A stretch of DNA of 4,715 bases. Source: a virus. Lineage: Duplodnaviria; Heunggongvirae; Uroviricota; Caudoviricetes. A program made the position numbers and the translations under genes. The stretch lies in the IMG/VR virus record IMGVR_UViG_2667527792_000004; one strand, written 5' to 3'. How positions within the stretch are numbered: position 1 is the first letter of the stretch; the number at the start of each line of letters is the position of its first letter. The notes under the pieces are model-generated. The model searched no databases, had not been told where the DNA came from, and saw nothing but the letters and a program-made list of their open reading frames with translations. Positions 1 to 4,715 of this stretch are shown here, piece by piece.

Positions 1-425
1 AATTAGACCAGCAATATCTAAAAGATCTACTTATCGCATTCGAAAAAACTCATGGCCCTGACACGATGCTTAGTGAACTAGAGGATAATGGCTTTAATAG
101 ATATGACCAAAATTTTATTTTCCATATGCGATTATTATGCGACTACGAATTAATAGTCAGGGTTGATGGAAAACCTGGGTTCGGTCATATAATGTCCAAC
201 GAGTTAGGGGAAGGTGTTGGATATAGTTGGATCGAAGTACCACTGAGGTTGACAGCAAGAGGGCATGATTTTATTGCTGACTTGCGTCAAAAGGAGGTCT
301 GGCAAACTATAAAAACAAACTTTAAGGATGAGGGAATTAGTACACTAATAAGTGTTTCAAAATCACTAGCAAAAGGCTTTGCAAGGAAAAAGATAAAAGA
401 TATTACAGGAATAGATATTGAATAA
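1..425 (+). CDS. 5'-partial hypothetical phage accessory protein (ea-region moron; tentatively resembles DUF2513-type small phage proteins)
   Basis: The frame is open from base 3 to TAA 423-425 (141 codons). There is no in-frame start before ATG 66 and no Shine-Dalgarno in front of ATG 66, so the true start is probably just upstream of the window. The segment is visibly AT-rich compared with the rest of the window. It sits where ea8.5 lies in phage lambda. The family assignment is from memory of motif spacing only. Confidence 0.55.
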   Translation, partial: LDQQYLKDLLIAFEKTHGPDTMLSELEDNGFNRYDQNFIFHMRLLCDYELIVRVDGKPGFGHIMSNELGEGVGYSWIEVPLRLTARGHDFIADLRQKEVWQTIKTNFKDEGISTLISVSKSLAKGFARKKIKDITGIDIE

Positions 426-469
426 TTCTTAGCATCAGCAACTACTGCCTTTGGTGGAAATTATATCTG

Positions 470-496
470 AACTCGCTACGGCGAGTTTTGTTTTAT
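470..496 (+). terminator. Putative intrinsic terminator hairpin (AACTCGC-TACG-GCGAGTT) followed by a T-rich tract
   Basis: Perfect 7-bp inverted repeat at 470-476 and 481-487 with a 4-nt loop, then TTGTTTTAT. Lies between the accessory ORF and the 55-aa ORF. Confidence 0.4.
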
Positions 497-507
497 GGAG
501 ATGATAA

Positions 508-675
508 ATGCACTTCCGAGTCACAGGTGAATGGAATGGAGAACCATTCAACAGAGTTATCGAAGCAGAGAACATCAATGACTGCTATGACCACTGGATG
601 ATATGGGCCCAGATAGCACATGCAGACATAACCAATATTCGAATTGAAGAACTGAAAGAACACCAAGCCGCCTGA
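508..675 (+). CDS. Small hypothetical protein, 55 aa, matching the lambda ORF between ea8.5 and xis (orf55 / lambdap35-like)
   Basis: ATG 508 is preceded by GGAG at 497-500 (7-nt spacing). Translation is MHFRVTGEWNGEPFNRVIEAENINDCYDHWMIWAQIAHADITNIRIEELKEHQAA, near-identical to my recollection of the lambda ORF at this position. It is below the 60-aa cutoff of the supplied ORF track. Confidence 0.7.
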   Translation: MHFRVTGEWNGEPFNRVIEAENINDCYDHWMIWAQIAHADITNIRIEELKEHQAA

Positions 676-2796: not shown

Positions 2797-2808
2797 GAGC
2801 GGTTATGC

Positions 2809-3087
2809 ATGATCGGCGACCCGACTGGCGCCCTGACCCGTAACTTCGACAACATGCGTGAAGATGAAGGTCTGGCTGATCGTGCGACCTTCGTTGTTGA
2901 CCCGCAGGGTATCATCCAGGCAATCGAAGTTACCGCTGAAGGCATTGGCCGTGACGCGTCTGACCTGCTGCGTAAAATCAAAGCAGCACAGTACGTAGCT
3001 TCTCACCCAGGTGAAGTTTGCCCGGCTAAATGGAAAGAAGGTGAAGCAACTCTGGCTCCGTCTCTGGACCTGGTTGGTAAAATCTAA
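2809..3087 (+). pseudogene. ahpC: C-terminal half of AhpC (alkyl hydroperoxide reductase, peroxiredoxin subunit), 5'-truncated
   Basis: Translation [92 protein letters not shown] matches AhpC residues ~96-187. The resolving Cys in VCPAKW is present, but the N-terminal peroxidatic Cys region is absent. The M at 2809 is an internal Met of AhpC. Confidence 0.85.
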
Positions 3088-3106
3088 GTTCCGCAATCGC
3101 GTAATT

Positions 3107-3136
3107 AATCGGGTGCTGCGGCACCCGATTTTCTTC
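3107..3136 (+). terminator. Intrinsic terminator/attenuator between ahpC and ahpF
   Basis: 10-bp stem AATCGGGTGC / GCACCCGATT (3107-3116 / 3121-3130) with loop TGCG, followed by a T-rich run. It lies 20 nt after the ahpC stop. Confidence 0.6.
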
Positions 3137-3215
3137 CCCGCACCATGATGCAAGCTGCATCCAGGTAGCCGCAGAGGCCGCTTGCATGATGATGTTTAAA
3201 GCCCAGGAGATAAAC

Positions 3216-4199
3216 ATGCTCGACACAAATATGAAAACTCAACTCAAGGCTTACCTTGAGAAATTGACCAAGCCTGTTGAGTTAATTGCCACGCTGGATG
3301 ACAGCGCTAAATCGGCAGAAATCAAGGAACTGTTGGCTGAAATCGCAGAACTGTCAGACAAAGTCACCTTTAAAGAAGATAACAGCTTGCCGGTGCGTAA
3401 GCCGTCTTTCCTGATCACCAACCCAGGTTCCAACCAGGGGCCACGTTTTGCAGGCTCCCCGCTGGGCCACGAGTTCACCTCGCTGGTACTGGCGTTGCTG
3501 TGGACCGGTGGTCATCCGTCGAAAGAAGCGCAGTCTCTGCTGGAGCAGATTCGCCATATTGACGGTGATTTTGAATTCGAAACCTATTACTCGCTCTCTT
3601 GCCACAACTGCCCGGACGTGGTGCAGGCGCTGAACCTGATGAGCGTACTGAACCCGCGCATCAAGCACACTGCAATTGACGGCGGCACCTTCCAGAACGA
3701 AATCACCGATCGCAACGTGATGGGCGTTCCGGCAGTGTTCGTAAACGGGAAAGAGTTTGGTCAGGGCCGCATGACGTTGACTGAAATCGTTGCCAAAATT
3801 GATACTGGCGCGGAAAAACGTGCGGCAGAAGAGCTGAACAAGCGTGATGCTTATGACGTATTAATCGTCGGTTCCGGCCCGGCGGGTGCAGCGGCAGCAA
3901 TTTACTCCGCACGTAAAGGCATCCGTACCGGTCTGATGGGCGAACGTTTTGGTGGTCAGATCCTCGATACCGTTGATATCGAAAACTACATTTCTGTACC
4001 GAAGACTGAAGGGCAGAAGCTGGCAGGCGCACTGAAAGTTCACGTTGATGAATACGACGTTGATGTGATCGACAGCCAGAGCGCCAGCAAACTGATCCCG
4101 GCAGCGGTTGACCAGCACGTTTTCCGCAGCTGTGGGTCAAAGAGGCATGATGCGACGCTTGTTCCTGCGCTTTGTTCATGCCGGATACGGCTAATGTAG
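3216..4199 (+). pseudogene. ahpF: ahpF (alkyl hydroperoxide reductase subunit F), 3'-truncated: homology covers about the first 298 codons, then unrelated sequence to a stop
   Basis: AGGAGA at 3205-3210 then ATG 3216. Translation [29 protein letters not shown] ... [17 protein letters not shown] ... [12 protein letters not shown] matches the AhpF N-terminal domain and the start of the FAD domain. After ~4110 it reads [29 protein letters not shown]-stop instead of the AhpF sequence EGGLHQIETASG... Confidence 0.85.
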
Positions 4200-4271: not shown

Positions 4272-4430
4272 TTATAATCTTTGAAAAATATCGCCAGAGA
4301 CGAACGGGAAACTGATACACAGCAACCCGACGATAAACAACAGCACGGCAATAAACTGGATTGCTCTGCGATGTTTTTTAAGCATCTCCAGATCAAACTT
4401 CAAAATTGTTGCCTTATCTATATATAACAT
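4272..4430 (-). CDS. Hypothetical small hydrophobic protein, 52 aa (single predicted TM helix)
   Basis: Minus-strand ORF giving MLYIDKATILKFDLEMLKKHRRAIQFIAVLLFIVGLLCISFPFVSGDIFQRL. GGTGG lies 4 nt upstream of the ATG. It has a charged N-terminal part followed by a ~22-residue hydrophobic stretch. It is absent from the ORF track because it is under 60 aa, and I do not recognise it. Confidence 0.3.
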   Translation of the reverse strand: MLYIDKATILKFDLEMLKKHRRAIQFIAVLLFIVGLLCISFPFVSGDIFQRL

Positions 4431-4469
4431 AGAACCACCCTATAAAATTAAGAAGAAAATCCCCTGCTA

Positions 4470-4715
4470 TCAATCTATGCCAAAAACGCGTCTAAGAATG
4501 CAGTCGGAGGGCCATTCCGGCAGTACGCTCAGAATATGGCGCAGATACGCTTCCGGATCGATACCGTTCAGACGGCAGGTGCCGATCAGCCCGTACAGCA
4601 GTGCTCCACGCTCGCCGCCGTGATCGCTACCGAAGAACACGTAATTTTTCTTTCCGAGACAGACTGCACGAAGCGCTCTTTCCGCTGTGTTATTGTCCAC
4701 CTCCGCCAGACCGTC
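4470..4715 (-). CDS. IS66-family transposase (TnpC-like), C-terminal 81 codons; the 5' part lies beyond the window end
   Basis: Minus-strand translation ...DGLAEVDNNTAERALRAVCLGKKNYVFFGSDHGGERGALLYGLIGTCRLNGIDPEAYLRHILSVLPEWP... carries the conserved IS66 transposase C-terminal signature (DNN-AER-LR ... GRKN-F-GS ... LNG-DPEAYL). The frame is open to the window edge. The M at 4700 in the ORF track is a GTG within the protein. Confidence 0.7.
   Translation of the reverse strand, partial: DGLAEVDNNTAERALRAVCLGKKNYVFFGSDHGGERGALLYGLIGTCRLNGIDPEAYLRHILSVLPEWPSDCILRRVFGID
4470..4715 (-). mobile_element. 3' portion of an IS66-family insertion sequence; element boundary not identified
   Basis: Transposase fragment as above. 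No GTAAGCG-type terminal inverted repeat is visible between 4200 and 4470. Confidence 0.5.

Follow-up and report, generated by a model that had tools for sequence, protein, structure and literature searches.

The stretch analysed here, IMG/VR record IMGVR_UViG_2667527792_000004 of the Caudoviricetes (4,715 nucleotides, hereafter the window), opens with a gene for a small protein of the DUF2513 family, placed directly upstream of a lambda-type orf55-xis-int segment. The gene is a variable insert within a lambda-type prophage's exo-xis region and not a fixture of the phage backbone, and its product of 142 amino acids (aa) is predicted to adopt a winged-helix fold. It is already annotated and belongs to a catalogued domain family, and is an ordinary accessory gene and not a new kind of system. 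As to its role, we tentatively favour, at a confidence somewhat short of even, a winged-helix protein made early, probably as a dimer, which binds nucleic acid or protein and adjusts phage development or the physiology of the host, a reading favoured by the fold, the position in the operon and the known character of the region.

The coding sequence occupies 1..425 on the plus strand, lacking its first 4 nucleotides (nt). The frame runs from base 3 and holds 140 sense codons, or 141 with the TAA stop at 423–425. In the identical stretch of Escherichia coli ATCC 8739 the ATG lies 4 nt before window base 1, leaving only the residues MK of the product outside the window; the list of open reading frames (ORFs) showed just an internal ATG at 66, because ORFs running off the window edge were not listed. 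The product is 100% identical to RefSeq WP_000762730.1, annotated in ATCC 8739 as "DUF2513 domain-containing protein". The opposite strand of the ORF region holds nothing beyond 33-aa ORFs, and searches of the same region against Rfam and for repeats gave no match and no repeat respectively. Forty of the 42 E. coli-type alleles from public viral contigs are intact. Against homologues of 73–75% identity from Enterobacter and Serratia, synonymous divergence (dS) is saturated and nonsynonymous divergence (dN) is 0.15–0.20, which indicates strong long-term purifying selection. The ORF is a real gene.

The insert ends at a mosaic junction with the lambda-type backbone at about position 460, which is reached through a 3′ untranslated tail (426..459, plus strand). 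A megablast alignment to lambda (J02459/NC_001416) covers 460–700 at 96.3% identity, and for lambda and about 185 other lambdoid phage records the alignment runs only from 460–464 onward, at 96–99% identity. Escherichia phage Chlobot, aligned across 1–700 at 97.3%, is the sole record also matching 1–459 among the 188 that match the lambda-like part, and E. coli prophages with the gene likewise align through 1–700. The fraction of guanine plus cytosine (GC) is 0.36, 0.405, 0.385 and 0.335 across 1–500 and 0.43–0.505 across 501–900. Lambda has ea8.5 immediately upstream of orf55-xis-int, and this gene is unrelated to the ORF in sequence. The original prediction, made from the letters, placed the start of lambda-like sequence at about 455–460 and upstream of it an ORF of at least 141 codons, lower in GC and sitting where lambda has ea8.5, and on all of these points it agrees with the alignments.

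The 455-bp segment carrying the gene was found in 185 of 5426 complete E. coli genomes (168 at coverage of at least 80%), at 181 chromosomal places and 11 on plasmids, while the adjoining orf55-xis segment is present in 2679 of the same genomes (1704 at coverage of at least 80%). Other genes fill the slot elsewhere next to the same orf55-xis-int backbone: ea8.5 in lambda, two small reverse-strand ORFs in 2B8, ORFs of 277 and 92 aa in JEP4, and a reverse-strand membrane protein in mEp332. This comparison across lambdoid phages supports the earlier description of a dispensable, variable slot and identifies the gene as an insert in it, not a conserved part of the backbone. Morons in the sense of Hendrix and colleagues are said to be autonomous accessory units in lambdoid phages, and two of their marks, variable presence (185 versus 2679 genomes) and deviating base composition (GC 0.34–0.40), are seen here. 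A moron would further have its own promoter and a downstream terminator, so as to be expressed from the repressed prophage; on this point consensus scans gave a terminator-like hairpin at 469–488 and no sigma-70-like site on the coding strand upstream. The exo-xis region contains non-essential early genes that influence lysogenisation and induction, and ea8.5 and orf55 are specific to lambda (PMC8614690).

Membership of the DUF2513 family is clear from profile searches. The protein matches Pfam PF10711 (DUF2513) with 42.9 bits against a gathering cut-off of 29.6 (E 6.8e-11), its residues 2–115 spanning the whole profile (positions 1–100 of 100), and no other Pfam family matches at E <= 0.1. 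It also matches phrog_585 (E 2.3e-34; residues 1–135 on profile positions 1–127 of 128), which is filed under the category "unknown function"; NCBIfam gave no match. The family signature, a histidine in helix 3 and an RLTxxGH(D/E)F motif after the wing, is present. H43, R84, L85, T86, G89 and H90 are invariant in 36 close homologues, and in a set of 99 diverse DUF2513 members the conservation of the signature H, R, T and G is still 90% or more. A word-indexed search returned 113 clusters, all from Enterobacterales and every one named DUF2513 by its source, and the precomputed PF10711 assignment is found on 110 of 110 full-length homologue clusters. An exhaustive profile search of 1.84 billion representatives gave 1520 clusters at E <= 0.001, nearly all of them stand-alone proteins of about 130–145 aa. 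The gene had been singled out as unassigned and possibly undescribed, a view that does not survive its identity to an annotated RefSeq protein, its membership of both Pfam DUF2513 and PHROG 585 and the presence of about 1500 related clusters, counted at 50% identity. The protein matches the whole profile, has the typical stand-alone size of the family (about 135–140 aa) and shows no feature that sets it apart. The family has neither a solved structure nor a literature: a single-sequence search and two profile searches of solved structures, one with a 99-member profile, gave no credible Protein Data Bank chain, and a literature search found DUF2513 mentioned once, incidentally, PF10711 unmentioned and nothing relevant under YjcQ. 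The Pfam search has placed the gene in a family that is catalogued but not well characterised, and within that family nothing about the present locus is special.

The AlphaFold model of the 142-aa protein is confident, with a predicted local distance difference test score (pLDDT) of 93.1, and shows a winged-helix fold with neither a signal peptide nor a membrane segment. A fold search of the viral predicted structures in BFVD gave no match at E <= 0.001. Likeness to the MarR, PadR, TubR and HxlR proteins is in fold only, with 8–21% sequence identity over about 60% of the protein and no Pfam match at E <= 0.1; those proteins bind DNA, whereas the winged-helix domain of the DUF2513 protein is acidic and its DNA binding is only putative. 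Lambda Ea8.5, a homeodomain/zinc-finger hybrid, is encoded at the same position upstream of orf55-xis-int and is likewise the product of a small dispensable early gene, but it has no sequence similarity to the DUF2513 protein (BLASTP E = 13), which is a winged helix. The solved structure of Ea8.5 suggests a role as a transcription factor (PMC8614690). Phi24B Gp05 is a predicted winged-helix protein from the exo-xis region of a Shiga toxin (Stx) phage, and differs from the DUF2513 protein in having a PVQ repeat and a coiled coil. Among 50,697 phage records searched by tblastn with the DUF2513 protein, none from an Stx phage gave a match.

Chlobot, an isolated and complete lambda-type phage of 46.5 kb, shows the gene in an intact setting, within the leftward early operon. 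Upstream of it on the same strand are N, ral, kil, gam, bet, exo, homologues of orf60a/63/61/73 and an Ea22-like gene, and between the last of these and the DUF2513 gene lie a gene for a 204-aa protein, an S24/UmuD-like fragment and a gene for a 112-aa protein; orf55 and then xis and int follow downstream. Consensus scans predicted no sigma-70-like promoter on the coding strand upstream of the gene. A TATAAA/TGnTATAAA motif, which in some loci stands before the palindrome described below, was considered as the extended −10 element of a promoter of its own and rejected: the motif arises from the final codons and the stop codon of the upstream gene, disappears where that gene has another ending and so is not conserved. 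From the operon layout in Chlobot and the lack of a predicted own promoter we infer expression within the N-antiterminated pL transcript. The prophage of ATCC 8739 is a remnant of about 9 kb between ybhB and ybhC; it carries several pseudogenes and IS1 twice, and lacks both N and an immunity region. The native promoter is therefore gone in the lineage of the window, and the DUF2513 gene is probably a silent or weakly expressed passenger in this defective remnant without N/pL.

The role that we favour can be set out as follows. The gene would encode a small soluble winged-helix protein and be carried as an optional extra by a lambda-type prophage, in the exo-xis slot. In an intact phage such as Chlobot it would be transcribed with the N-antiterminated leftward early operon, and its product would thus be made early after infection or induction and not from the repressed prophage. 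The protein would dimerise, probably via its C-terminal helices, and the winged-helix domain would bind a nucleic acid or protein partner and tune phage development or host physiology. Such a tuning role would parallel the reported action of other exo-xis genes.

Several observations weigh against this proposal. The winged-helix part of the protein (residues 1–85) has a net charge of −6, close to the rest of the family (median −6, range −10 to −1), and the putative recognition helix offers a single conserved basic residue, an uncommon feature among proteins that bind DNA sequence-specifically. We identified no operator for the protein: the only conserved palindrome nearby, GTGACATGTCAC, goes with the gene for the 112-aa protein upstream and not with the DUF2513 gene, and stands equally before a Rem-like or T4 Y11B-like gene. 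The literature holds no experiment of any kind on the DUF2513 family. Selection among near-identical E. coli alleles gives dN/dS values of 0.12–0.77, which are noisy at about 10 substitutions per pair, and int, orf55 and the gene of the 204-aa neighbour have dN/dS of about 0.1 between the same two genomes, below that of the DUF2513 gene. Homologues also occupy quite different phage slots, and their function is therefore not specific to the exo-xis region. In Serratia prophages they close an early operon and are followed by a predicted exonuclease, an Xis-like gene and int; in a Klebsiella phage one is flanked by the lysis genes and the terminase small subunit; in Cronobacter prophages they immediately precede the terminase small subunit; and in Yersinia-type prophages they lie in the nin region, between DNA methylases and the DUF1367-YbcO-Q genes. 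Finally, some neighbours and fusions of the family point towards immunity over regulation. An AIPR abortive-infection gene (568 aa) lies directly before a homologue in three enterobacterial prophages (4076–5782 in loci L117 and L118; also L120), and a type I restriction R subunit adjoins one in a gammaproteobacterial metagenome-assembled genome (MAG; L049 2982–5927). Rare metagenomic fusions, found in a few distant relatives, join a DUF2513-like N-terminal module to TIR_2 or to a CAP12/Pycsar-type TIR domain, and weakly to DUF4062 (P0241, L167 849–2072; P0138, L166 355–1191; and P0206).

These neighbours and fusions could reflect a phage-borne immunity or exclusion factor, whose winged helix would recognise the nucleic acid or protein of an invading phage and which, alone or with a host partner, would hinder superinfecting phages. 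We consider this unlikely, though worth keeping in view. An Eco57I-like methylase adjoins a homologue in a Latescibacterota MAG (L069 6318–8006) and DprA does so in some environmental bacteria, where most neighbours lack annotation; across about 125 distinct neighbourhoods, however, there is no common partner gene. The TIR fusions come from single contigs of 2.1–2.3 kb with no informative neighbours. PADLOC-DB 2.0 gave no match at E <= 1 for the DUF2513 protein or its neighbours, and among 99 DUF2513 members nothing beyond four isolated marginal matches (E 0.001–0.01). Known effectors that pair a winged helix with TIR, and the effector of retron Ec86, differ from the DUF2513 protein, which lacks an effector domain and whose surroundings contain neither a retron nor a TIR gene. 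With no promoter of its own found, no expression would be expected from a repressed prophage. The earlier suggestion that the gene might serve lysogenic conversion or superinfection exclusion finds no support, there being no PADLOC match, no signal peptide or membrane segment and no promoter-like site belonging to the gene itself.

A further alternative, and one we regard as improbable, is a part in counter-defence or host takeover, in which an acidic early protein would tie up some protein of the host or of a defence system, for instance as a mimic of the sensor module of winged-helix–TIR proteins. It would account for a winged-helix domain that is acidic throughout the family, for the place of the gene in early operons and for the recurrence of the same module as the N-terminal part of TIR-domain proteins. 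The ral and gam products, encoded in the same operon of Chlobot, act by binding host proteins. Host proteins are also bound by orf73/TraR, and possibly by orf55, of the exo-xis and early-left regions (PMC8614690). The proposal is nevertheless purely speculative; many DNA binders of the MarR/PadR type are also acidic overall, and the C-terminal part of the DUF2513 protein is basic.

The gene just upstream of the window raises the question of a partner. Its 112-aa product belongs to phrog_536, labelled "transcriptional regulator", and it is found at 11630–11968 in locus L001 and 7630–7968 in locus L002. It lies 28–29 nt upstream of the DUF2513 gene, with identical spacing, at 63 of 153 loci, among them loci of E. 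coli, Cronobacter and Yersinia, and does so at different positions of different phage backbones. Across linked loci the protein is 52–100% identical, and 63% identical between E. coli and Cronobacter despite their different backbones. Such adjacency would suit a two-gene module, either toxin–antitoxin or regulator–effector, as would the sizes and order of the genes, which resemble those of toxin–antitoxin pairs, and the N-terminus of the 112-aa protein, which is weakly like the LexA-regulated YbfE (16.8 bits against a cut-off of 62). In a type II toxin–antitoxin pair both genes are kept, and loss of the antitoxin should not be tolerated. Here 24 of 41 E. coli-type loci, the source of the window among them, have a TGA that breaks the 112-aa gene at its invariant Cys40 beside an intact DUF2513 gene, and this largely refutes the module. 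Moreover, no 112-aa gene can be recognised upstream of homologues of 73–76% identity in Serratia and at some other loci, and the family of the 112-aa protein, with at least 394 clusters, is far larger and elsewhere has unrelated small genes, Rem-like or T4 Y11B-like, behind it. A module of this kind is thus very improbable, a toxin–antitoxin relation between the two genes is unlikely, and we rejected the 112-aa gene as an obligate partner, given that it is a pseudogene in most E. coli-type loci, is not recognisable upstream at the Serratia and some other loci and has other followers. The DUF2513 gene does not depend on it. The same three facts, the pseudogene, the unlinked homologues and the other followers, make the linkage look like shared descent of a block. 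The earlier statement that the ORF has no visible partner gene accordingly holds within the window, but just outside lies this often linked gene, in a lineage where it has become a pseudogene.

The 112-aa protein has six invariant cysteines (C40, C79, C82, C91, C93 and C99). Its family has no Pfam domain and occurs in Salmonella, Citrobacter, Klebsiella and others, where its genes usually close the nin region or come immediately ahead of the terminase small subunit; because the AlphaFold model was poor (pLDDT 53.5), we did not use it. We read the arrangement at the present locus as a block of 112-aa gene, palindrome and DUF2513 gene that came into the exo-xis region from a place in nin or close to the terminase. 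The TGA-bearing form is annotated as a pseudogene in ATCC 8739, and several of its sub-lineages have also lost other invariant residues (G80R, C99Y). Its alleles would fit a spreading pseudogene, and the loss of these further residues, a sign of decay, makes it unlikely that the TGA at Cys40 encodes selenocysteine.

The palindrome GTGACATGTCAC is exact over its 12 bp and lies between the 112-aa and DUF2513 genes, 15–26 nt before the ATG and just outside the window (11975–11986 in L001). It also stands at 4336–4347 in L155–L165, at 8252 in L011 and at 6787 in L161. In prophages of E. coli, Cronobacter, Yersinia, Enterobacter and Salmonella it comes immediately after the stop of the 112-aa gene or overlaps it, irrespective of the next gene, which in some Salmonella and E. 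coli prophages is Rem-like or T4 Y11B-like. It was found in 77 of 171 fetched loci, against about 0.001 per 12 kb expected by chance. Such phages have further copies where other genes meet, one of them just past the terminator downstream of the terminase large subunit; Chlobot has a single copy. The palindrome may be an operator or a junction for the exchange of cargo. LexA boxes have the consensus CTGT-N8-ACAG and CRP boxes TGTGA-N6-TCACA, and the conserved core GTGACA/TGTCAC, having no spacer, fits neither, so that we rejected the palindrome as either kind of box.

A more speculative combination of these observations is that DUF2513 is a stand-alone recognition module of phage–host conflict systems, serving either to arm a host effector against competing phages, in the manner of a trigger or adaptor, or to disarm such effectors as a decoy, and that the slot after GTGACATGTCAC is a point of cargo exchange. 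We regard this as a long shot. If it were true, temperate phages would carry, as free cargo, the winged-helix unit that rare bacteria have fused to TIR effectors, and the slot downstream of the 112-aa gene and its palindrome would be a previously unnoticed exchange point in enterobacterial phages. A small winged-helix protein in the exo-xis slot will not surprise a specialist, and as a discovery the locus counts for little. Its value, a modest one, lies in pointing to DUF2513, a sizeable family, largely borne by phages and mobile elements, with a confidently predicted fold. Chlobot, a viable isolate with the gene in the well-understood pL operon, offers a convenient genetic entry point to the family and could extend knowledge of a region whose genes influence lysogeny and prophage induction.

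The 204-aa protein encoded between the Ea22-like gene and the insert (10722–11336 in L001, 6722–7336 in L002; phrog_8310) has an N-terminus like that of a signal peptide or lipoprotein, and weak matches to SH3_3 and LPAM_1; its gene is followed by a hairpin and a T-run. This gene is another exo-xis accessory, and is a better candidate for lysogenic conversion or a surface function than the DUF2513 gene.

Downstream of the insert, the first backbone gene is the orf55 homologue (508..675, plus strand; 55 aa; phrog_676, E 1.7e-39), discussed in PMC8614690. It is followed on the same strand by xis (715–933), a RefSeq excisionase, and by the lambda-type int (911–1981), a RefSeq tyrosine recombinase; these two close the leftward early operon, and after them come the prophage end and ybhC. 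A consensus scan, which found four terminator-like hairpins where 0.4 were expected, placed one at 469..488 (plus strand) just downstream of the insert, GAACTCGCTACGGCGAGTTT followed by TGTTTT, with a stem of 8 pairs; it lies inside the stretch shared with lambda. A second and stronger hairpin, AAGCCGCCTGATGGCGGTTT followed by TTTCTT, occurs in the lambda-type backbone at 665–684, where it overlaps the orf55 stop (673–675) and extends into the gap before xis. The reverse complement of GCTTTTTTATACTAA, the core of the lambda attachment (att) site, can be read at 2055–2069.

Bases 1–2140 of the window comprise the prophage end and the start of the ybhC region, and have a match of 100% identity in many E. 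coli chromosomes, that of ATCC 8739 among them. Past 2140 the window is not contiguous with ybhC, unlike the genomes that match 1–2140, and becomes a patchwork of unlinked E. coli loci; none of the 5426 complete E. coli genomes covers 80% or more of it. The window has the look of a chimeric assembly or of a sequence that was heavily rearranged or constructed, which leaves the finding at 1–455 unaffected. The patchwork consists of an unidentified piece (2141–2382), zntR-arfA-mscL (about 2383–2805), the 3′ end of ahpC with ahpF (about 2804–4111), a repeat-rich piece between the ahpF and hdeD parts, an hdeD segment (about 4285–4506) and a fragment of an IS66-family transposase on the minus strand (about 4470–4700). 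The ahpF frame, at 3186–4199, matches E. coli ahpF to about 4111 and then continues in unrelated sequence ending in a repeat-like element; ahpF is truncated at a patchwork junction.
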